DNA of 63,858 bases, the filler included, from Stramenopiles sp. TOSAG23-2 (Eukaryota): NCBI GenBank assembly GCA_900128395.1. It is 17 parts of 17 records of this genome, joined end to end, with 100 filler letters (N's around TTAATTAATTAA, not from the genome) between each part and the next. Parts side by side here need not be neighbours in the genome. Positions count along the whole stretch, not along the records: positions 32,917 to 36,913 come from LT651031.1; 16 more parts are not named here. One strand, given 5' to 3'. Every line of letters starts with the position of its first letter. Position 1 is the first letter of the stretch. Positions 900-61,758 of the stretch are shown here, in pieces. The position numbers and the translations under genes were made by a program. Under the pieces are notes generated by a model. That model searched no databases, was not told the origin of the DNA, and worked only from the letters and a program-made list of their open reading frames with translations.

Positions 900-1159
900 T
901 TACTCATATGTTATTTGTAATATAATATATATATTGATATATATATATGAACATAGCCGAAGTAAAGGAGCATGCAGCTTCTAATTGGATTTCTACCACA
1001 TGTAGAGATATACAAACTGCGATTATTAAAACTTGCGCTTATAATAATCGTTTTGCTTTAAAATGTGCATTTGGTGAGTCGTACAATGACTTGTACCCCG
1101 GTACAATTTATTCTCCGCCTTCCTATAATGTTCGTTTTCATCAACTGCTACGAGTAGTT

Positions 1160-1380
1160 GATACCATCTATTTACCTTCATTTGTTTTCTCTATTATGGG
1201 AATATCAACACATTAGTGTGAGATAGATTATTTCAGCTATTTGTATTCTTTTGTGAAGAGTAGGAATTATCATTTGAGTAAATTAAAACAATAAGTTATG
1301 CATTAATTAATAAATATATACAATAAATTATATGCGTAAATTAAATTATTATACGTCGTATATCATATCATATGATGATA
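1160..1380 (-). repeat. Dispersed AT-rich repeat, copy 1 (homologous to 13720-13955)
   Basis: Reverse complement CTCACACTAATGTGTTGATATTCCCATAATAGAGAAAACAAATGAAGGTAAATAGATGGTAT aligns with 13876-13953; flanking ATTTAATTTACGCA and ATTTACTCA blocks are also shared. Confidence 0.8.
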
Positions 1381-1434
1381 TAAAGATATACGAGGCGTAT
1401 GATAATGATAATCTACAAAGAATAAATTTAACCA

Positions 1435-4023: not shown

Positions 4024-4123
4024 NNNNNNNNNNNNNNNNNNNNNNNNNNNNNNNNNNNNNNNNNNNNTTAATTAATTAANNNNNNNNNNNNNNNNNNNNN
4101 NNNNNNNNNNNNNNNNNNNNNNN
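4024..4123. other. Artificial contig linker (N44-TTAATTAATTAA-N44); one of 16
   Basis: Identical 100-nt linker with stops in all frames also starts at 8146, 12268, 16386, 20502, 24614, 28719, 32817, 36914, 41008, 45097, 49186, 53273, 57350, 61426 and 62643. Genes run into the linkers unfinished. Confidence 0.99.
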
Positions 4124-4186: not shown

Positions 4187-5884
4187 ATGTCCTCATCGGG
4201 TAGAAAGAATACAACCTTAAAACGTAAAAAATTTAGTGCTGTTAATCAAAGCCATATGTTATCAAAAGAAGGAATTAAAGAATATGCTATATCGGTTGGT
4301 GTAGAAGCAGATTGTATGCTTGATAATAAAATTTGGGACGTTATTGGTGCTAGTGGTGAATATAGTCTGAAAAAAGTTGTTGAGGAAGCTCAGAAATATA
4401 CCAGGGCTGGTAAACGTGCACGTGTATCCCGGGAAGATATTAATTTAGCAATAAAATCTATGGGTGGGAAGTCTATTTATGGAATTGTATCTCAAGTTGA
4501 TGAGACTGTTCAAAGGAATCAAGATTTAAAAACTCTTGTCAAATCAAAAACAGCATTGGAAGCTGCTGAAATTTTGCCAACTTGTAGTATAGCGTTGGAC
4601 ACCTTATGCGACATGGAATTGCCGCCTGTACCACTGGAGCCCGCAATAACAGCACACTGGCTTGCAGTAGAAGGTATTATGCCTACTATACCGCAAAATA
4701 TAGATGTGAATGTCAACGAGGACGATAAGAACAATAATAGTAATTACAATAGTAAACATAAGAGTAAAAGCAATGGGGTTGGCCATAGCAACAATAGCAA
4801 AAAGAGCAATAGAAATGAACATAAACAACAAAATTTAATAAATACTAGAACAGGTGTATTATATCACAATTTATCGGAAGAACAACAGGTATATTTATAT
4901 CGTTTGCAATATGATGCATTAGTAAATGATGAAACCAATAGAAAAGATAAAGTCAATACTACGAAAACAGGAATGTCTACATCAACAATGAACTTGCCTC
5001 AATTGATGGAAGTAAAGGCTGTGGATATACGCAAAGCAGCAATTCGGCAAATCAGTTGCGATACTGCAGGTGCATTGCAACCATTAGTACCATATTTAAT
5101 CCATTGGATTGAAGTAACCACACAAAGTAATTTAAGAAATTTGCATATATTAAATTGTATAGTTGATGTAGCAGGTGGATTAATTGATAATCCAAATATT
5201 GATCTTGAACTTTACTTAGATCGCTTAATGCCATCATTATTGACATGCGTTGTCAGTAAACGTTTGTGTCAAGATGATGCAAAGGATGATCACTGGGCAT
5301 TGCGAGATCATGCGGCTGACATTGTTGCACGAGTTTGTGATAAATTTGGCGGTAAATATCCAAAATTGCAATTGAGAATTGCAAAGACATATCGTAAAGC
5401 ATTATCAAACCCGCATACACCATGGACGACATCATATGGAGTGTTAATTGGTTTGTGTAATCTAGGTGTTCGTGTAATTGAAACAGTATTGTTGCCAAGG
5501 TGTGAAGATTTTATAAAACGTTTGAAGGATGCTATGGATGGAATATTTGTTCCAGAGGAAGAAAGAAAGAGCAAAGGTGGTCAAAGAATTAGTAAGCGTG
5601 TGCAAAATAACCAAGTGTTAACGGAGGAGGAAAAGTTAAAGAAAAAGAAATCAGATGAATTAAAACAAGAAAATGCTCGTAAATGTTGGGGGGCATTATT
5701 GTTTACAGTCGGTAAATTATATACATATGAAGGTTTTGACGGTAGTGATGATAATAATGATATTAACAATGACTTAAAAAAGCAATTGCTTACATTATTT
5801 GGTGATGAACTATTGGCATATATTAAAGAAAAAGATAGTAGTAACAATGGTAGTGGTAACACTAATGGGAACAATATTTTATGA
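4187..5884 (+). CDS. TAF6: TFIID subunit 6
   Basis: N-terminal histone fold, AHWLAVEGIMPTIPQN, HNLSEEQQVY, LQPLVPYLI, DDHWALRDHAA HEAT-domain motifs. Confidence 0.93.
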   Translation: MSSSGRKNTTLKRKKFSAVNQSHMLSKEGIKEYAISVGVEADCMLDNKIWDVIGASGEYSLKKVVEEAQKYTRAGKRARVSREDINLAIKSMGGKSIYGIVSQVDETVQRNQDLKTLVKSKTALEAAEILPTCSIALDTLCDMELPPVPLEPAITAHWLAVEGIMPTIPQNIDVNVNEDDKNNNSNYNSKHKSKSNGVGHSNNSKKSNRNEHKQQNLINTRTGVLYHNLSEEQQVYLYRLQYDALVNDETNRKDKVNTTKTGMSTSTMNLPQLMEVKAVDIRKAAIRQISCDTAGALQPLVPYLIHWIEVTTQSNLRNLHILNCIVDVAGGLIDNPNIDLELYLDRLMPSLLTCVVSKRLCQDDAKDDHWALRDHAADIVARVCDKFGGKYPKLQLRIAKTYRKALSNPHTPWTTSYGVLIGLCNLGVRVIETVLLPRCEDFIKRLKDAMDGIFVPEEERKSKGGQRISKRVQNNQVLTEEEKLKKKKSDELKQENARKCWGALLFTVGKLYTYEGFDGSDDNNDINNDLKKQLLTLFGDELLAYIKEKDSSNNGSGNTNGNNIL

Positions 5885-6272
5885 CTATGATATTTTATAC
5901 GTATGTGCGTACGCTTCGTATGAAAAAGACGAGAGAGAGAGTATAACATACGTGTGTGATGATAATTATAATGAGTATGATACTGTAGTGTTTAAGTAAT
6001 ATTTTACAAAGAGAGAGTATATTTTAAATATGTATTTTTATATACGTATATTTTTGCTTTTTTTTAAAAATATAAAAACACATTTCTTTTATAATACGAC
6101 GCGTATTTCTATATCTAATTACGTATACGAATACATACGAAACTCGTAAAAAATATATTTTTTTGTATTTTTAAAAATAAGGTATTGATATATATATATA
6201 TCGTATATATGATATATATGATATATTAATATATATATTATACCAAGTACATCTATTAAATACACATACATT

Positions 6273-6913
6273 TCACTCCTCATCCTTTGGTTTCCATGTT
6301 TCATGCTCTACATCCTCTTTAAAGATTGTATCGCCTTTACGCAAACGTAAATTTTTATATGGGTTTTCTCGATCTCTAATACTAACAATAATTGAAAATG
6401 TTGCAAACAAATCATCATCATCAATATTATCATTCTTCTTTTGTTTTTCTAAATACTTTTTATAATTAAATTTATTGCCACCTCCATAAACACCTACATA
6501 TAATGTTTCAGCACCTTTTGGGAATTCTTTTAAATTAGATGGTAATTTTATAGTCTCACCACCTATACTTTTAGATATCCATGTGGATGTGGTTTTAGTT
6601 GGTTTCATTTTATTTGGCGATATATACAAATCAGGATCACCGTCTGTAACTTTTACTTGTATTTCTACATTATGAAAATGATGATGGTCATTATATTTTG
6701 GTAGACAAGCTTGAAAATAAACATATTCACCATATTTTACACGTGCATTTTCATATAAAACGTTTGGCCTTAATAACTGTCCTCCAGCAACAACTAATGT
6801 ATTGGGATTTATCAAATCATTTTGCTCAATATAATATGTGATTTCGTTACAAGTATTTAAAGGTGGTGGTTTATTATTATTTGATAACAGTTTCTTATTT
6901 TTACTTCCAATTG

Positions 6914-7405: not shown

Positions 7406-7462
7406 ATTCCAGCATTCCAGGCATTCCAGGCATTCCAGGCATTCTGGCATTCTTCTGGCATT
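7406..7462. promoter_or_regulatory. GC island, (CATTCCAGG)n micro-repeat, about 200 bp upstream of ATG 7208
   Basis: Tandem 8-9-mers in otherwise very AT-rich DNA; further islands at 7712-7790 and 7886-7909. Confidence 0.5.
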
Positions 7463-8467
7463 ACAGTAGCTCATCTATATTCTATACCCATACCACTAAA
7501 AAAATATATCACAATAATTTCAATAATGCTATGTGTTACAATGCTATACATATGCTATTTCAAAAAATCAATAGTGTATTGTTTTAAATAGTGGCCTAGG
7601 CAAAGCGAGGAGGTGAGGAATTCTGGAATTCGAAATACTACATCATGTATAGAAATATACTTATAATATGAAACTCCTATCGTGAATAATAGAAAGGAAT
7701 TAGCATTGATTCCGCCAGGTTTGCCAGCTAGCAGCTAATTAGGCCAGGTTTGCCAGCCAGGCCAGGTTGCCAGGTTTGCTAGGTTTGGATTTCCATGGAT
7801 TTTCCATATTATATTACTACTAGTATACTAGTATTGCACTTTGCCTTTTTATTTATAATTTTTTTTTGAATTTTTTTTAGTCATACTGGCTGGGCTGGCC
7901 GGGCTTGGCATCACAAGAAATAATATTTAGTATCAAGCACTCAGTACTTTTTATGAAATAATATGACTAATAATTAATACACCACCACTAAAAAACATGT
8001 ATGTTGTATTTCAAAATAAAATAGATATGAAACGAACGAATATCGTGAATTTCCTTCTCTTTTATTTTTAGCATTAATATATGAATATATTATATATATA
8101 CACTACTTCATCATTATGATTGCAGCATCTGCACAAGCAAAACAANNNNNNNNNNNNNNNNNNNNNNNNNNNNNNNNNNNNNNNNNNNNTTAATTAATTA
8201 ANNNNNNNNNNNNNNNNNNNNNNNNNNNNNNNNNNNNNNNNNNNNATTTGAAACATATTTGAATACATATGATATCCGTCTCTTTAAATATGAATGGGTA
8301 CATGTATAAATGTATGTTTTCTTGTGTGGTTTCTACAGTATTTCAAGATATATATATATATATATATATTATTTTTATTATTAGACGACCATATTCACTC
8401 AAAACTTTGCTAACCAACGTCTCACTATATCCAGGCAGGTATTAGATAATACCAGGTAGCACTAATT

Positions 8468-13719: not shown

Positions 13720-13955
13720 TATATGATATGATATATATCATTTATTTAATTTACGCACATAATTTATTTAAATATAATTTAATTTTATCATACGCATAAT
13801 TTACTCATGATAATTCTTCATATCATATATAAAATGTTCTCTTCTTCATATATATCATACAATTATATCTATATCTCACACACTAGTGTGTTGATATTCT
13901 CATAATGGAGAATACTTCGTATAACAAATGAAGGTACTCGTAAATAGATGGTATG
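13720..13955 (+). repeat. Dispersed AT-rich repeat, copy 2
   Basis: Homologous to the reverse complement of 1160-1380, with small TA-bounded insertions. Confidence 0.8.
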
Positions 13956-14504
13956 TCTAATTATTTTGATAAATATTTTTATATAATACCCGATATATAT
14001 TATATTTTGATCAAAATAAATTGTGTAATATCTCTATAGAGATTTTAAAAAAAATTACTTTTCAAAAGATATCTCTCCTCATTTTATATTCATACTTCGT
14101 ACGAAGTATTAATGTATCAATGTATCATATTATATATATGCATATACATGTTAAGATTCATATCATATTTTTTTATATAATATACAAAAATAATATTGAA
14201 AAAATTAAAAACATTAAAGGAAAAATATTTATATATATATGTCTATGTTTTAACCAATATATATATCATATGCATATGCATATATATATATTTTATATTT
14301 ATATATTTAATAAAAAACATAACATTAAATTTACTTTTTTCTTCTTTTTTTTGACATCATTTTAAAAGTTTACGATATTAATGCAAGTTGTATCATATTA
14401 GTATGATATCACAAAATCATATCTTTACAAGGTGTATTTCATTGATTACCAAGTGTTGCTACACTATATATATTAATATACAAGTGGGCATATATAAATT
14501 ATAT

Positions 14505-16334
14505 TTACAAATTTGACAACAGTTCATCATCAGCAATTGCAGCGATATTAGATGCGGCATTGCTTAAGTCTCCACTTTTAAATGGTGGCAATGCACGTTT
14601 TGTTTCGTCATATCCAAATTCCAATCCACCTTCTAATACAGCATCAAGAGCTTCTTCAACGCGATCAACAAGAATAATTTCCATTTCATTTCTGATCTCC
14701 TCTGGAATTTCAACAACGTCTTTTTTATTTTTTGATGGTAAAACAACACGTCGCAATCCTTCGCGGTGAGCAGCAAGACACTTTTCTTTAATACCACCAA
14801 CTGGAAGTACTTTGCCACGTAACGATATCTCTCCAGTCATAGCCGTATCCGAACGCACTAATTTGTCAAGAAACAAAGATGAAAGAGCACTCGTGATCGC
14901 AACTCCAGCGGATGGTCCATCTTTAGGAATGGCACCAGCTGGAAAGTGTATATGAACATCCGAAAATTTGAACAGTGGCTCTCTTTCTTCAAACACAGAT
15001 TGCTCTTGCAAACCAAGTTCAACGGTATTTGCACGTATCCAACTCAACGCTATTTGTGCGGATTCTTTCATTACATCGCCAAGTTGACCAGTAAGCTTTA
15101 AACCACCACTTCCACGATATCTTGTGCATTCGATAAATAACAATTCGCCTCCAACACTTGTCCATGCTAATCCAGTTGATACACCTGGGACTGTGACTCT
15201 CATCGCAGTCTCTGATTGAAAGCGTACAGGACCCATAATTTCCTCAACCAACTCAGGTGTCAACACAGGTGCATAGAATTTGCCAACACTTCCATTGCTA
15301 CTCCATTCTGCTACACGAACGGCAATATTTCGACACAATGCAGAAATATCTCTTTCAAGACCACGGACACCGGCCTCTCGAGTATAACTACGAATTAAAA
15401 ATTTCAACGATTCAGTTGGTAACTTAAAATCTTCTGGTTCCAACGCATGTCTTTCAACAGCACGTCTTACTAAATGTCTTTCGGCAATTGCAACTTTTTC
15501 ATTCATGGTATATCCAGGCAATTGAATAATCTCCATACGATCACGAAGTGGGCCTGGAATTGTCGCAAGGTCATTTGCTGTTGCGAAAAATAAAACTTCA
15601 GAGAGATCAAACTCACTATTAATGTAATGATCGACGAAGTGTGAGTTTTGTTCTGGATCTAAAATTTCAAGTAAAGCAGATGCTGGATCGCCGCGGAAAT
15701 CTCTTCCCAACTTATCAATTTCATCCAATAACATTACTGGATTTTGCGTACCAGCTTTTTTCATTCCGGCAATAATGTTGCCAGGCATTGAGCCAATATA
15801 CGTACGCCTATGTCCACGGAGTTCCGCTTCGTCACGTACACCACCCAAAGCCATACGATGGAACGTTCTTCCCAATGCCTTAGCAACGGAATTACCTAAT
15901 GAAGTCTTTCCAACTCCAGGAGGTCCTAAAAGACATAATATAGCACCCGCTGAGCGACTTTTCGTTTGCTCCTCTTCTTTCATTGCTTCTTCTGATTTTG
16001 CTTCTTCTCCTTCTTCAGTTGAGGAAGCAGACTCTTCTGTACCCCCGGCACCTACATCTTTCGATGGTCGTTCTTTCATTTGATGCAATTGTTTGATAGC
16101 TAAATATTCTACCAAACGTTTCTTCACTTTCTCTAATCCATAATGATCCTCATCCAATTGTTCTTTCACCCGAACTATGTCCATAGCATCATCCGAGTAT
16201 TTACCCCATGGCAGATCAGCCATCCATTCTAAATAAGTTTGAATCATGGAGTATTCTGGTTGCACAGGTTGCATTCTTCCAATGCGTTTCAATTCCCTGG
16301 TGACGACTTTACGCGCATCTGGTGGCAATGGCAT
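14505..16334 (-). CDS. LONP2: Lon protease, probably peroxisomal (5'-truncated by inverted chimera)
   Basis: GPPGVGKT Walker A, GHRRTYIG, LLDEIDK, PKDGPSAG catalytic Ser, GGIKEK Lys; C-terminal SNL is a PTS1-like variant. Confidence 0.93.
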   Translation of the reverse strand: MPLPPDARKVVTRELKRIGRMQPVQPEYSMIQTYLEWMADLPWGKYSDDAMDIVRVKEQLDEDHYGLEKVKKRLVEYLAIKQLHQMKERPSKDVGAGGTEESASSTEEGEEAKSEEAMKEEEQTKSRSAGAILCLLGPPGVGKTSLGNSVAKALGRTFHRMALGGVRDEAELRGHRRTYIGSMPGNIIAGMKKAGTQNPVMLLDEIDKLGRDFRGDPASALLEILDPEQNSHFVDHYINSEFDLSEVLFFATANDLATIPGPLRDRMEIIQLPGYTMNEKVAIAERHLVRRAVERHALEPEDFKLPTESLKFLIRSYTREAGVRGLERDISALCRNIAVRVAEWSSNGSVGKFYAPVLTPELVEEIMGPVRFQSETAMRVTVPGVSTGLAWTSVGGELLFIECTRYRGSGGLKLTGQLGDVMKESAQIALSWIRANTVELGLQEQSVFEEREPLFKFSDVHIHFPAGAIPKDGPSAGVAITSALSSLFLDKLVRSDTAMTGEISLRGKVLPVGGIKEKCLAAHREGLRRVVLPSKNKKDVVEIPEEIRNEMEIILVDRVEEALDAVLEGGLEFGYDETKRALPPFKSGDLSNAASNIAAIADDELLSNL

Positions 16335-16757: not shown

Positions 16758-17437
16758 ATTGCCGGCAATGCAATTCGACAAACGGAAAGAATAAATTCAT
16801 CGAACCTCAAATTTCTTTTATGTTAGCGAATCTTGGTAATGCCTGAATAATGCCTTCGACAAATAATTTAAATTGATGAAAAAAAGAAAAAAAAAGATAT
16901 GCATACTTATTGTATTATTATATTACTATCCTCAACAACAATTTGTACACTACGAATAATCAGTACTGTGTACCTGCTAATACACCTACCACCTGTGGTA
17001 AACTACATTAACATGGTCTAATACTACCTTAATTAGTGTAGAATCGTCGTCGATTAAGATTTGAGACCACCCTTCCTCGTAAGTGCGTAAATGCGTTAGC
17101 TAAAGCGGCCTAAAAAAGCAGCCTGAAAGATGGAAGTTTCTGCCAGAATTAGAATGTGCCAGAAGCAACAATCTTGTAAAAAGTGCATGCTGGGCTAAAA
17201 AAAATGATAAAATGGGATTAAGCACGGACGTGCGCACATTTACAGTAGTCTACCAGGTACTACACACATCTTCTATTCTTCTTTTTTTAGTTAAAATAAA
17301 TATATTATAATAAATAATTGATTGAATGCATCATAGTGAAGCCAGTCAACTAAAAGAAGAACAGCAAAGACGAACAAGAACAAAAACAAATTTAGCAACA
17401 ATTGGACAGTAATAACATATCGCACAACGAAGGTATA

Positions 17438-20179: not shown

Positions 20180-20601
20180 AAAAATCTTTATTTGATATGT
20201 GTGTGTGTGTGTGTGTTAATTCTCCTTTCAAATTATAGCAACTATTGTGCTATTCTTACGTGCTTACGGCAAGGAGAAAAAATAAAAAAAGGGGTCTAAC
20301 TTTTTTAAAAATATATTAAGTATGTATTTTGGTATACTACAGTAATATTTCTATTTGACCAAAAAAAATAATTTCAGACCGTTTCAAAAGTTCAAAGGTT
20401 AAGCAAAAGTTCAAAGGTTATCGTTAAAATCTCATATTTTTTTGGAAGAAAATATTATTAAAAATAAATAGAATGAACAAAGTTATAATCAAAACCATAA
20501 TNNNNNNNNNNNNNNNNNNNNNNNNNNNNNNNNNNNNNNNNNNNNTTAATTAATTAANNNNNNNNNNNNNNNNNNNNNNNNNNNNNNNNNNNNNNNNNNN
20601 N

Positions 20602-21189: not shown

Positions 21190-21372
21190 AAATATATATA
21201 CTCGCGTATGTTTTTTAAAAAGTCAAAAGGAGAAGGAAAACAAGAGAGAGAGAGAGAGAGAGAGAAAAGGATGTATTTTCTACGCGAGATACGTCGTATG
21301 ATCGAGTATAAAATGTGATATTAAAATGTGCGTGTGAGAAAACTTTTTACAAAATTTCGTACGATGTTTTTT

Positions 21373-35281: not shown

Positions 35282-35929
35282 AATGGGGCAAGAGATAGGA
35301 AGAGAAATTTTATGATATATATATTACGAAGTATTTTTTTTTATTTAAAATAATACGAGCGTATTTTTTTATGTTTATATATTTATTTTTATTTTATTTA
35401 AGCATCATAATATTTATAAAAAATACGAAGTATACGTATAATACAAGTTGTTGTGTATACGAGTATATTATGATATGCATAGAACATTATGAAAGCAAAA
35501 AAAAGGCATTGTGTACTTCATATCATATGCATACTAAAAAAACCAAACGGTAGGTGTGTGTGTTTGTGAAAAATACCGGTATACGAGTATATTATGATAT
35601 GCATAGAACATTATGAAAGCAAAAAAAAGGCATGTGTATCATACTAAAAAAACCAAACGGTAGATGTGTGTGTGTGTGTGAAAAATACCGAGGAGAAGGA
35701 GTTAAAAATGTACAATTATTTAATATCACATACGAATGTATTTTATTCAAAAAAGAAATGTACTCCGTACATCTCATATATTATTTTAATACTCGTAATA
35801 AAAAATACGAAAAGAGTATTTTCGTACGAGCGCGTATTATTTTTTATTATGTTTTATTTTTATATAAATATAAAATTAACTAATATAATTTATATATATA
35901 TATTATATATATATATATATTTATATATA

Positions 35930-36390
35930 ATATATGAGTAAGAGAACGTTTTATATATTATGTGTATATTATGTGTAAAAATATTATAACTTAGATTTTA
36001 ACCATCATATATATTATGTGTAATAAAAAATCAAAAAATTTTTTTAAAAAAGGAGCAAAAATACTAAAAAATACGAGTATATTACGCCCATCATTGTGTA
36101 CGACGTACAGAATAATCATTTCAATATTCTTATTCTGGTTACGATTTTGTGGATGATAGTTTAGATGATGCCATGATGTATTCGTAAAATGACAGATATA
36201 TTTTGAAATGATTATTCTGTACGTCGTACACAATGATGGGCGTAATATATTTTTTAGTATTTTTTGCTCCTTTTTTAAAAAATTTTTGATTTTTTATTAC
36301 ACATAATATATATGATGGTTAAAATCTAAGTTATAATATTTTTACACATAATATACACATAATATATAAAACGTTCTCTTACTCATATAT
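35930..36390. repeat. Foldback inverted repeat, arms about 190 bp, loop about 78 nt
   Basis: 35930-36124 is the near-perfect reverse complement of 36203-36390; a third partial copy lies at 36767-36913; flanked by direct repeats (35432-35850 vs 36400-36730). Confidence 0.9.
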
Positions 36391-37013
36391 ATATATAAAC
36401 GTATAATACAAGTTGTTGTGTATACGAGTATATTATGATATGCATAGAACATTATGAAAGCAAAAAAAAGGCATTGTGTACTTCATATCATATGCATACT
36501 AAAAAAACCAAACGGTAGGTGTGTGTGTTTGTGAAAAATACCGAGGAGAAGGAGTTAAAAATGTACAATTATTAAATATATATCACATATGAATGTATTT
36601 TATTCAAAAAAGAAATGTACTCCGTACATCTCATATATTATTTTTATTTTAATAATAAAATTATTTTATAAAAGAGGTTTTTTAAAATAAAAATACGAAG
36701 AGTATTTTCGTATTATTTATTATTTTTTATTTTAATAAATATTCGTATAAAAAATTATACGAGTATATGTAATAAAAAATCAAAAAATTTTTTTAAAAAA
36801 GGAGCAAAAATACTAAAAAATACGAGTATATTACGCCCATCATTGTGTACGACGTACAAATAATCATTTCAAAATATATCTGTCATTTTACGAATACATC
36901 ATGGCATCATCTANNNNNNNNNNNNNNNNNNNNNNNNNNNNNNNNNNNNNNNNNNNNTTAATTAATTAANNNNNNNNNNNNNNNNNNNNNNNNNNNNNNN
37001 NNNNNNNNNNNNN

Positions 37014-37437
37014 GTGTTTCTACCATTGAAGCAGCAGGTATTTTAAAAATTCATTATAAAATGGTTTATTTTAATACTAACAATTTTGTTAGTTTTTTTT
37101 TCATTATTATTAGTATTATTTTAAAACACGTGTTAAACTCCTCTAATTAATTTTAAAAATATTTAAGGTATATACGAAAAATGGTCAATGTACTACCAAA
37201 ATACCAAAATCGTCATCATCATCTTTTTCTGGCATTTTATTACCTTAATATTGTGCAAGTGTTTCTACCATTACAGCAGCAGGTATTTTAAAAGTTCATT
37301 ATAAAATGGTTTATTTTAATACTAACAATTTTGTTACCTTTTTTTTCCATTGTTATTAGTGTTATTTTGAAACACGTGTTAAACTCCTCTAATTAATTTG
37401 AAAAATATTTAAGGTAGTATATACGAAAAATGGTCAA
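37014..37437 (+). repeat. Tandem 245-bp repeat at contig start
   Basis: GTGTTTCTACCATT..AGCAGCAGGTATTTTAAAA at 37014 and 37259. Confidence 0.9.
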
Positions 37438-37518
37438 AAGTCAAAAGAATGGTCAAATTAAAATGTAAAATATATTTCATCTATGCATATATATATCATT
37501 ATTTATATATAAAATTTT

Positions 37519-40455: not shown

Positions 40456-40833
40456 CTTATATATATATATAAAAAAAAAATAATGTCAAAAAATATTATT
40501 AAAAAACAATTACGAATACCAATATGTAATAATATGCAACAAGGAAAAACAAAACCCCAAGAATATGCTAATTATATATATATATATTCGGTATGTTAAT
40601 TATTTGTAAATAAGAATACATAAAATATATGTCCAGTATATTTCGAATATATACATGAATTATTATATTTCTCGATTCATTCAAAATATTTAAAAATCTA
40701 TAACGTCAATATATTTATTAATCCTATCCTCTATATATTACAAGCGTGGATATCTGTGGTTTAAGGTGACAAAATTAAAAAAAAAATAAATGAAGTGCCT
40801 ATATTTCACTCATTTTTGTATGATGTATTACAT

Positions 40834-41006
40834 TTGACCATTTTTCGTATATACCTTAAATATTTTTCAAATTAATTGCAGGGGTTTAACACGTGTTTTA
40901 AAATAAGCCTAATAACAAAGAAAAAAAAAACTAACAAAATTGTTTGTATTAAAATAAACCATTTTATAATGAATTTTTAAAATACGTGCTGCTTCAATGG
41001 TAGAAA
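40834..41006 (-). repeat. Inverted copy of the 37014 repeat unit
   Basis: Reverse complement of 37017-37188 with scattered substitutions. Confidence 0.9.
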
Positions 41007-41183: not shown

Positions 41184-41431
41184 AGTTTATGTATATATAT
41201 CTTTATATATATATATATTTTGTATATATATATTCTATATATCTATATTGTCTTCAACATATTTTTAGTATATATTTATTTGTATATATTTCTTAGATCA
41301 TTCAAATTTCATCAATTCTTCTCAACATAAACAGAAGTGATAATTAAAAAAAGTAATTAATAAAAATTATAAAAACGTATTATTACCTACTTTCGGCCTG
41401 ACATAAACACACACACACGATTTTCTCTCTC

Positions 41432-44383: not shown

Positions 44384-45471
44384 TACCGAAAATGGAATTA
44401 TCTTTACCTAAATGTCAGTAGTAGATAGGTTTTGTGTTAAGGAAATCTAAGAAATTGTAGAAAAAAGTGGATAGAAATTAGAAAAAATACCAACATATTG
44501 AAATAACCGCAACAATTGGCAAAAAATTACAAGAAACCGTGGATTTTGTAAATAAAGTAACAATAATTTAATAGTGAATAGTGTATTTTTAATATTTAAG
44601 GATACCAGACGATTTAGAAACACAGCTGAAAGAAATTAGAACAAGTATTTATATGAATAACAAAATAAAATTAATGTACGACGCCGGCCACCCAAAATGA
44701 TTGCAATTACTTCCTCCTTATTTCGAACATTTGCCGGCGGCGTTAGCCCCTAGTATCTCCCAATGGGGCCTGTGAGCAAAACTGCCCGCGTGACATAGGA
44801 GAGTATATGTAGATTTAAGTACCATTATTTTTACTCTATAAGATAACCCCCTTTGTGTCCGTGCTAGAGTGGACAGATTACCCTTAGTTTTACCTTATTA
44901 GTAGATTAAGTATATGAAATATGCACTTAGATGTATTCCTATCAAGTGAGATCGAAAATGGATATATTACCTGACTTTTATCCGTAATGCTATTACTATG
45001 CTATTTGAAAATGGTATACATGCGTATAAAACATGTATGTGAACAATGTTTACATCAATACAACGCATCACATATCATATTTAGATACATACAAACNNNN
45101 NNNNNNNNNNNNNNNNNNNNNNNNNNNNNNNNNNNNNNNNTTAATTAATTAANNNNNNNNNNNNNNNNNNNNNNNNNNNNNNNNNNNNNNNNNNNNTATC
45201 ATGAGAGTAGAATCTAAATATAAAACTATACACGAGAGAAATATATTCGTACGAATATATTTATATACGAATACGACGTACGAATCGTAATTATAATACG
45301 ATGTTACGTATACGAAGTCCGTACCACGAAGGAGAATTGTACCGCGAGATGTTTAATAAATTTTAACGGTATATTTTTACTGTGTTCGTACGAAAAACCT
45401 TTTTTCTATGTACACGAAAGAGTCTGGCGACACAGACTAAACCACCACACATCAAAATATTAAGTTTTTTC

Positions 45472-46940: not shown

Positions 46941-47536
46941 AAAAAAAGAATCATTAAGACATATAGATGGAGATAATGTATATATAAAACAGAGAGAGAG
47001 AGAGAAAGGACAAGAAGAATGATGAACCATCAATTTAAAACAGATGCAAACCTCCATTTCTTGGATCGAGTATTGAGTACGAGTATATATACGAGTATAT
47101 ATATTTACCACGACGTGTGAGTGATTTATATAAAAATCAAAAACCACTTACGACGTATTAAAAAAATTTAAATTTTCTCCCCCATCAAATGACATTACCT
47201 GTATAGAGAATACTCAAAAGAATACACTCACGTTTTATTGCAATGCAAATGACACATCTCAAAATGTTTTTTTATAATTTTTTCAACCATACATCAATTA
47301 TTTTAATTTCGTAGTCTAATTTATTATTAAATTTTGTTACCTGTTATTTATATAGTAGTTGGTGTGGAATTTGCACATTTGATAGGTATATTTTAGATAT
47401 TTGTACTACTATGGGTGTATTTTAATTTTTTTGGTTAAAAAAGTATAGCTATACCTGGTATAGTTGAAGTAAAAAAAAGCAATAATGATGAGCATCACGT
47501 TAACGTGCATGAAAAAAAATTCATACAGTATCCTTC

Positions 47537-60839: not shown

Positions 60840-61758
60840 AAAGAAATGAAATACGATATGATAACTTTGTTACATATAATACGCATGACTTTCATTAAAT
60901 ATTTATATACCAAGGTAGCGTCACTACTATCATAAATAAAACAGAAGAGTAAAAAGCAAATATAATAATAATAAATAAATAAAAAAGAAGAATATATAAT
61001 TTATACGAAGTATGAGATAAGAAACAGATATGGTATGATATGATGTTATGGTGATATATGATATATCATGCTCGTATATCAAGAGATATTAAATGGATAT
61101 TGGTGAATGGTATATAAATTCATACGAAAAAATATACGCGGATACGCGGAGATAGAGAGTGCGAGATGAGAATAAACCAAATGGACCACAGAGAGAGAGA
61201 GAGATTAAAAAATATTAATTGGATTTATTTTTTAATTTTTTTTTATTTTATAAAAATATACGTCGTATTTTTTTATATTAAAAAAATATTAAATTAAATA
61301 TATATCATCTGCCTCAGTTATTGTATTCTTTCGAAGACTATCTTTCTTTTTACGAATCACTACTATTCAGCAAAAGTTTTTTTCTGAGAAACATAAAGAC
61401 TAGAGTCCATAAATATGCGGTTTGTNNNNNNNNNNNNNNNNNNNNNNNNNNNNNNNNNNNNNNNNNNNNTTAATTAATTAANNNNNNNNNNNNNNNNNNN
61501 NNNNNNNNNNNNNNNNNNNNNNNNNTGTGCAGATCTTGTACACAAATATATATCTATAGATATAAATAAATTTATTATTATCATCATTTCCATTAAACGT
61601 GTCTACAATATAGTACCATAATCATAGTGAGAACATATTTACGTGTGTCAATATTATTTATCGAATATATATATATAAGATAATAATACATATAATAATA
61701 TACATTTTAGATCAATATTACTTATATCACAAATATAAAAGAAAAATAAAACGACATT

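Follow-up and report, generated by a model that had tools for sequence, protein, structure and literature searches.

Copies of repeats in the genome of Stramenopiles sp. TOSAG23-2 differ by short inserts that turn a bare TA dinucleotide into TA-core-TA, several of them with a CpG in the core, and this raises the question of whether such words are the footprints of TA-targeting transposons. The DNA analyzed, referred to here as the window, is 63,858 nucleotides (nt) long and consists of 17 separate contigs (15 of ∼4 kb and two of 1.1 kb), arranged longest first and joined by N44-TTAATTAATTAA-N44 linkers, for example at 4024–4123 and 8146–8245. As the contigs are unrelated, "sibling" copies located on different contigs are dispersed repeats and not neighbors. 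The footprint interpretation had been put forward in a sequence-only reading of the window. In the present analysis, excision scars of one or more TA-targeting transposons were found to be the best explanation of the core words, one that is adopted tentatively and with slightly less than even confidence.

Insertions at TA among orthologous haplotypes

Orthologous loci were sought by protein scans. A scan with the TAF6 protein identified three loci on metagenome contigs (L001, L002, and L003). No further orthologous locus was obtained with the U-box protein or eIF5B in genome contigs or with the U-box protein or the kinase in viral contigs, and the sole match of eIF5B in the genome contigs was one unrelated bacterial IF2. 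The TAF6 coding sequences of the window and the three loci differed pairwise at 8–22 of 1698 bases, with no gaps, and the window differed from the three haplotypes at 12–22 of these bases (∼1%). Ten variable sites supported the topology ((window, L001), (L002, L003)), and none of the 30 variable sites conflicted with it. The spacers were found to be far more divergent, with 35 gap openings in 3576 nt between the window and L001.

In the convergent 3′ spacer behind TAF6, L003 carries TA-CGAG-TA where the other three haplotypes carry TA (bare TA at 6005–6006 in the window). Insertions of TCATA and TGATA are private to L002, another two of TCATA and TGATA are private to L003, and one of TGATA is private to the window (TA-TGA-TA at 5976–5982). 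L001 reads TA-CTTCG-TA-CGATTCG-TA at a point where the window reads TA-TG-TA. A second 3′/3′ spacer, present in L001 and L003 only, shows TA-CTTCG-TA (an addition of CTTCGTA) in L003 and TA-CGCGTTCG-TA (an addition of CGCGTTCGTA) in L001, each against TA, and TACGAATTCGTA is common to both. The inserted cores are TCA or TGA in five events, and the inserted 5-mers are not tandem duplicates of adjacent sequence. Since the insertions are private to terminal branches, at least five of them are most parsimoniously read as gains. At eight or more sites in the two spacers compared, both an empty and a scarred state were observed.

Indels of at least 4 nt were tallied by eye from the AT-rich alignments. 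It was observed that 11 of 17 indels in the 3′ spacers were anchored on TA versus none of 13 in the 5′ spacer at 7620–8145 (Fisher p = 3e-4); random segments of the same spacers look TA-anchored in 13–16% of cases (binomial p = 8e-6). The six unanchored 3′ indels included a 29-nt deletion, two 19-nt blocks, and a ∼413-nt surplus in an L001 spacer. The comparison of orthologous sites, a check proposed in the sequence-only reading, supported that reading in part: the inserts are polymorphic among near-identical wild haplotypes, their polarity suggests insertion, and most of the 3′ indels are TA-anchored.

CG versus TG/CA differences were located exactly at words, namely, at 35731 versus 36590, at 5903 versus L002 and L003, and at 6131 versus L001. 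This is a pattern of CpG deamination, and it hints at cytosine methylation in the 3′ flanks. In the 5′ spacer, L001 contains ∼680 extra bases (7430–8110) relative to the window at ∼7635, including a 114-codon open reading frame (ORF) of low complexity. Haplotypes that are 0.7% apart in the adjacent coding sequence are in this way distinguished by the presence or absence of a gene-sized segment.

Fixed words and their placement behind genes

Every word cited in the sequence-only reading was found at its coordinate by word search (Table 1). The proposed difference between sibling copies, a short TA-core-TA insert, was clean in three pairs: TA-CGAG-TA at 36072 versus bare TA in the opposite arm, TA-CGAGCGCG-TA at 35825 versus bare TA near 36711, and TACTCGTA at 13935 versus bare TA in the 1161–1382 copy, although the last two copies are only 68.6% alike. 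The fourth pair did not hold up equally well, as the bare TA at 36653 opposite 35790 requires gaps in the alignment, among them a compensating 4–6-nt indel alongside. The possibility that TACGAGTA is the tip of a longer conserved repeat was discarded, the sequences following the word being unrelated.

The enrichment of the words was evaluated in 17,420 nt of non-coding DNA with repeat copies masked, using Markov models of orders 1–3 and 300 simulations per model. The four core words TACGAGTA, TACTCGTA, TACGACGTA, and TACGTCGTA occurred 13 times against 0.52, 0.99, and 1.76 expected under orders 1, 2, and 3, respectively, a number reached in none of the 300 simulations under any model. However, the surplus of TA-core-TA words that had been predicted does not extend to the broad class: TA-(any CG core)-TA was found 187 times against 185–192 expected, and TACGTA, TACGATA, and TATCGTA were likewise not enriched in this DNA. 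TACG followed by CGTA at a spacing of 4–16 was found 19 times against 3.4 expected (none of 200 simulations reached 19); the opposite order, CGTA followed by TACG, was found six times against 3.6 expected. Words composed of a prefix of CGAAG and a suffix of CTTCG numbered 35 against 11.9 expected, the top ratio among the 20 end sequences tried, and end-sequence sets sharing no CGA or TCA/TGA words gave 0.5–2.0-fold.

The words are restricted to the 3′ side of genes. The density of TACG/CGTA was 14.2 per kb in the 300 nt downstream of stop codons versus 2.6 per kb in the 300 nt upstream of start codons, with 5.1 per kb in coding DNA, which confirms the claimed concentration downstream of genes. 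The accompanying suggestion that much intergenic CpG may consist of scars is supported by the neighbors of CpG: TA abuts 67 of the 133 CpGs within 300 nt downstream of stops, as opposed to 11 of the 71 upstream CpGs and 168 of the 893 coding ones. The observed/expected ratio of CpG was 1.40 downstream and 0.92 upstream. The words are symmetric with respect to the gene strand (49 TACG versus 44 CGTA). Similar to the CG words in their 3′-flank specificity, TATGATA/TATCATA were found 26 times downstream and three times upstream (300-nt flanks of the whole window), and TATGCATA seven times downstream and never upstream. The TCA/TGA words often form runs, such as TCA-TCA-TGA-TGA at 1360–1385, in which every unit is bounded by TA. 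A word is present within up to 200 nt after the stop in 20 of 25 genes, and in three of the five genes without one, the downstream stretch is shortened by a contig end. In L001, the density of words was 30 and 45 per kb in the two 3′/3′ spacers, 5.2 and 0 per kb in 5′ spacers, and 1.8–5.9 per kb in coding DNA. Core-less TA-TA runs numbered 175 versus 189; the 5′ spacers are as rich in TATA runs, without such scars.

Origin of the words

The core words could be produced by cut-and-paste transposons of the IS630/Tc1/mariner kind that target TA and insert and excise repeatedly. Insertion would duplicate the target TA, and excision would leave behind, between the two TAs, a few bases from one terminus of the element or from both. 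A CpG class of scars, with the cores CGAG, CTTCG, CGAATTCG, CGACG, and CGCGTTCG, may derive from ends like CGAAG…CTTCG or CGAG…CTCG, which the words fit better than plain CGA…TCG; a canonical 3-nt class would comprise TA-TGA-TA and TA-TCA-TA. The TGA/TCA class differs from CGA/TCG solely by the CpG-to-TpG/CpA transition, and such transitions were found between copies and haplotypes (for example, CATACGAATG versus CATATGAATG). Hence, one family with partly deaminated ends could possibly yield both classes. The accumulation in 3′ flanks might reflect either a compact genome that tolerates insertions nowhere else or a preference of the element for such sites.

A candidate, unproven donor for the TA-TGA-TA/TA-TCA-TA class is a 451-nt inverted repeat bounded by TA on both sides. 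The TCA/TGA cores match the ends of this candidate unit (35935–36385), and the CG cores are 4–8 nt long. The borders of the repeat are uncertain, as the similarity of the arms continues ∼20 nt past the unit. A TA directly followed by TGAGTAAGAGAAC forms both ends of the repeat and is also present in several 3′ flanks, where the sequence preceding the TA is unrelated. The longer form TGAGTAAGAGAAC(A/G)TTTTATATA is a dispersed motif that stands directly after TA, always in the 3′ flank of a gene, and commonly has a second module, AACTTAGATTTTAACCA, after it; in the orthologous spacer of TAF6, L003 has the motif and the window lacks it. A ∼190-nt repeat carrying TACGAAAAATGG was considered as an element terminus and rejected, its border lying 16 nt past the TA.

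Several observations weigh against the transposon explanation. The sequence-only reading had postulated an element with CGA…TCG ends, and this part was not substantiated: in the 64-kb window and 17.8 kb of related loci (∼82 kb in total), no element with TA-CG… ends, including TA-CGA…TCG-TA, was found. In the word counts of the masked non-coding DNA, the complete scar TACGATCGTA was absent, and the canonical 3-nt words TACGATA/TATCGTA were not enriched. A search for TA-flanked inverted repeats returned only the palindrome at 35914–36405 and inverted repeats of repeat or low-complexity sequence, none of them CG-ended. Among 30 ORFs of the window, no transposase domain of Pfam families was detected, and no site in the two spacers compared showed an element in one haplotype and a scar in another. 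The CG cores, at 4–8 nt, exceed the 2–4 nt usual for the superfamily. The L002 branch carries two insertions in ∼130 nt of spacer versus three substitutions in 1698 coding nt, which implies a very high rate. Some inserts resemble words 10–150 nt away, such as GTATCATACG of L002, which recurs ∼45 nt downstream, so that they may have been templated locally. The tally of 17 + 13 indels, made by eye, rests on partly ambiguous alignments. In addition, the 5′ spacers are equally TA-rich and tolerate indels of 45–61 nt, yet carry almost no words; such strict restriction to 3′ flanks is not predicted by an element that targets TA at random and is equally expected of a functional 3′-end motif.

The words may alternatively be short DNA or RNA 3′-end signals (for termination, cleavage/polyadenylation, or a chromatin boundary) that are under selection and turn over fast by local duplication, the TA flanks being part of a palindromic motif in AT-rich DNA. 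This is considered unlikely. It would account for the position of the words in the window and again in L001, as well as for the presence of a word behind the stop in 20 of 25 genes, three of the five exceptions having shortened flanks. The words cluster, some new inserts resemble neighboring words, the genome appears to use short palindromic signals such as TACCAGGTA (six occurrences against 0.14 expected), and transcripts of Mimiviridae end at palindromic hairpins according to the available excerpt of PMC4402537. However, no ordinary mutation adds a given motif together with a TA duplication, and at least eight such events were observed among four haplotypes. The offset from the stop is broad (12–133 nt), some genes lack a word, and the words are gained and lost among the haplotypes about as freely as the surrounding spacer. 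Their strand symmetry argues against an RNA signal, the spacing of the CG halves (0–12 nt) is unlike the binding site of a single protein, and RNA hairpins would need more than arms of 3–5 nt with loops of 0–3 nt. Palindromes with a stem of at least 6 are themselves enriched only ∼2-fold in the 5.8 kb behind the 25 genes (24 versus 11.8 in shuffles) and ∼1.5-fold upstream (15 versus 9.6), and seven of the 24 hold two or more G/C pairs, while most words have arms of 3–5 nt. A hairpin behind essentially every gene was therefore rejected, the enrichment of hairpins being weak.

Repair without any mobile element is likewise given little credence. In this scenario, the words would be scars of recurrent double-strand breaks in TA-rich, cruciform-prone 3′ spacers, where TA would be cut, with a stagger of 2 nt, by a nuclease of the host that might be a domesticated transposase. 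During end joining, the TA would be filled in, and bases would be added that are templated or reflect polymerase bias. A per-site rate that rivals or exceeds that of point substitution would be easier to reach for a resident hot-spot enzyme than through cycles of insertion and excision; the lack of an element in ∼82 kb, the inserts that match words 10–150 nt away, as in templated end joining, and the richness of the spacers in (TA)n and palindromes also agree with it. However, random or polymerase-biased additions predict GC, GG, and CC as often as CG, whereas the same few fixed cores were found repeatedly on unrelated contigs, and the five TCA/TGA cores cannot be untemplated. The 5′ spacers, equal in TATA runs, are free of scars. 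An origin of the pattern in single-cell amplification, co-assembly, or chance alignment in AT-rich DNA is very improbable and close to refuted. The contigs are short (∼4 kb), the palindrome at 35914–36405 is shaped like an amplification chimera, and TA is so common that a fraction of random spacer indels looks anchored. Nevertheless, the same words and the same 3′ bias are present in three independent metagenome contigs from other records, the enrichment persists after repeat masking and under order-3 Markov models, and several indels separate the two arms of the palindrome, which are therefore not one molecule copied twice.

Excision scars thus remain the preferred explanation of the core words, and the footprint interpretation is supported in part. 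The data directly show that TA is duplicated, that the cores are fixed, that the polarity is that of insertion, and that the words keep to the 3′ side, whereas the action of a transposon, the sequence of its ends, and the cause of the 3′ confinement are inferred. A bolder proposal is that a highly active cut-and-paste system specific for TA, be it a mobile element or a domesticated transposase, works almost only behind genes, writes fixed CpG scars at a per-site rate at least equal to that of point substitution and is the source of half or more of the CpGs in these flanks and of much spacer sequence; this is a real possibility but, on balance, a doubtful one. If scars build most of the 3′ intergenic sequence, mobile-element traffic would shape non-coding DNA even where no element remains. 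The scars, if true, would offer a rapidly evolving marker by which strains of an abundant wild protist could readily be told apart and would explain the local excess of CpG without selection. If the words are instead 3′-end signals, they would represent an undescribed termination or polyadenylation code.

The window and comparison with known systems

The DNA of the window has a G+C content of 31%, and its genes are densely packed. The ORFs encode eukaryotic housekeeping proteins, including eIF5B, TAF6, Lon protease, kinases, and proteins with VHL, EML/HELP, and U-box domains. The standard genetic code leaves long ORFs open, among them ORFs of 900 amino acids (aa); a ciliate code was rejected, for although translation table 6 lengthens ORFs, the 900-aa ORFs are already open in the standard code. 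The TAF6 contig was present in 20 of the 24 public runs listed (11 studies), most of them labelled as marine or seawater metagenomes, and the closest named relatives of TAF6 are just 25–30% identical. The source is a cellular eukaryote and, in view of these runs and identities, an uncultured marine protist. The Lon protease (14505–16334, minus strand) is bacterial in type, with nearest named relatives in Myxococcota and other Deltaproteobacteria (53–55% identity) and a chytrid (53%); as public data include an identical but longer form (895 aa), the gene is truncated by the contig. Lon proteins of two relatives of the source are 87% and 72% identical. In the contig at 37014–41007, the ∼190-nt repeat forms a tandem pair behind a 978-codon gene, with one inverted copy before the gene. 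These copies lie at 37014–37441 and 40812–41006, that is, at both contig ends, and the assembly probably breaks within the repeat. Runs of (GA)n and (GT)n occur a few tens of nt from many stop codons (41385–41431, 20190–20220, 21245–21270, and 5925–5940).

The palindrome TACCAGGTA lies 150–450 nt upstream of an ORF on the same strand in five of six cases, and at 17245, it is preceded by GTAGTCTA, which is likewise enriched. TACCAGGTA looks like a core promoter or a transcription-factor site. The positions of this and the other features are collected in Table 1.

Table 1. Positions of words, repeats, and palindromes in the window and, where named, in L001 and L003.
Feature	Position	Remark
Convergent 3′ spacer behind TAF6	5884..6273	Dense in TACG/CGTA words; TACGCTTCGTA (5910), TACGACGCGTA (6095), TACGAAACTCGTA (6136)
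TACTCGTA	13935 and 35790	Word search
TACGAGCGCGTA	35825	Word search
TACGAGTA	1149, 36072, 47078, 47090; further 35458, 35582, 36423, 36758, 36821	Word search; five of these nine copies are repeat copies, which qualifies the count
TACGACGTA/TACGTCGTA	1352, 21290, 36099, 45272, 47149, 61259; further 36220, 36848	Word search
TACTTCGTA	13913 and 14093	Word search
TACTCGTA	35790..35797	Bare TA in sibling copy near 36653 (gapped alignment)
TACGAAAAGAGTATTTTCGTA mini-palindrome, then TACGAGCGCGTA	35806..35836	Sibling at 36694–36712 lacks the 10-nt CGAGCGCG+TA insert
TACGAGTA	36072..36079	In left arm and in copy at 36821; opposite arm near 36248 has bare TA
TACGACGTA, odd palindrome	36099..36107	Mirror TACGTCGTA at 36220–36228; another copy at 36848
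TACTTCGTA and TACTCGTA in dispersed repeat	13913..13942	Copy at 1161–1382 lacks both inserts
18-nt perfect palindrome ATACTTCGTACGAAGTAT	14092..14109	3′ flank of Lon gene
Word cluster behind U-box gene	45243..45320	16-nt palindrome around TTCGTACGAA, TACGAATA, TACGACGTA, TACGAATCGTA, TACGTA, TACGAAG
TACGAGTA (1149), TACGTCGTA (1352), TACGAGGCGTA (1389)	1149..1399	Convergent 3′ spacer
Two TACGAGTA 12 nt apart (47078, 47090) and TACGACGTA (47149)	47078..47157	
TACGCGAGATACGTCGTA and TCGTACGA	21281..21365	Convergent 3′ spacer of 190 nt
TACGTCGTA within A/T-flanked palindrome	61259..61267	Downstream of kinase gene
451-nt inverted-repeat unit, TA on both sides	35933..36387 (unit 35935–36385)	Ends TGAGTAAGAGAAC…GTTCTCTTACTCA
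TGAGTAAGAGAAC(A/G)TTTTATATA	545–575, 890–908, 13825–13848, 35935, 36385; L001 1310, 1415; L003 5850	
Palindromic TACCAGGTA	8450, 12453, 17251, 23447, 33327, 47452 (minus strand); also L003 ∼3650	

Among the papers listed in literature searches, none reported such dense, fast, 3′-flank-confined scars as a genome-wide feature, and a full-text search for the words themselves returned unrelated matches only. The nearest known system is that of IS630/Tc1/mariner footprints. The canonical Tc1/mariner scar, as given in the available excerpt of PMC6943129, is TA, the first or last 2–4 bases of the element, and TA, for example TACAGTA/TACTGTA in Sleeping Beauty. The words described here resemble it in the duplicated TA with a few fixed bases between; footprint words are near-palindromic because the element ends are inverted repeats, and TA-TGA-TA/TA-TCA-TA, with 3 nt plus TA, are of the canonical size described in that excerpt. 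In contrast, the CG cores are often 4–8 nt long, and the words occur at 14–45 per kb in gene 3′ flanks only, with a rate of gain near that of point substitution.

Internal eliminated sequences and TA-indels of Paramecium are bounded by TA and, according to the available excerpt of PMC3464196, are linked to Tc1/mariner-like ends. The present events are similarly anchored on TA and may be tied to ends of this type, but pieces of 5–10 nt are added with the polarity of insertion, and the genes use the standard code. The eliminated segments of Paramecium are roughly 26 nt or longer and are removed precisely from the somatic genome. TA-bounded elimination of the ciliate type was therefore rejected, as the events seen here are 5–10 nt long and private to single terminal branches, that is, insertions.

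In Mimiviridae, the 3′ ends of transcripts are placed at palindromic hairpins, a rule described in the available excerpt of PMC4402537. The AT-rich genome and the palindromic words in spacers behind genes are shared features; unlike Mimiviridae, the source is a cellular eukaryote (TAF6, eIF5B, VHL, and EML domains), and its palindromes are much shorter, do not stand behind every gene, and show only ∼2-fold enrichment at stems of at least 6.

A further parallel is offered by the mobile GC clusters of yeast mitochondria, which are 30–50 nt long, lie in AT-rich spacers, and are polymorphic among strains. In both systems, small palindromic inserts bearing G+C are polymorphic in AT-rich intergenic DNA; those described here are 5–12 nt long, lie among nuclear-type genes, and duplicate TA, unlike the yeast clusters. 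As a class of mechanism, transposon footprints are textbook knowledge; the unusual aspects in this wild protist population are how dense the words are, how fast they arise, and that they are confined to 3′ flanks.

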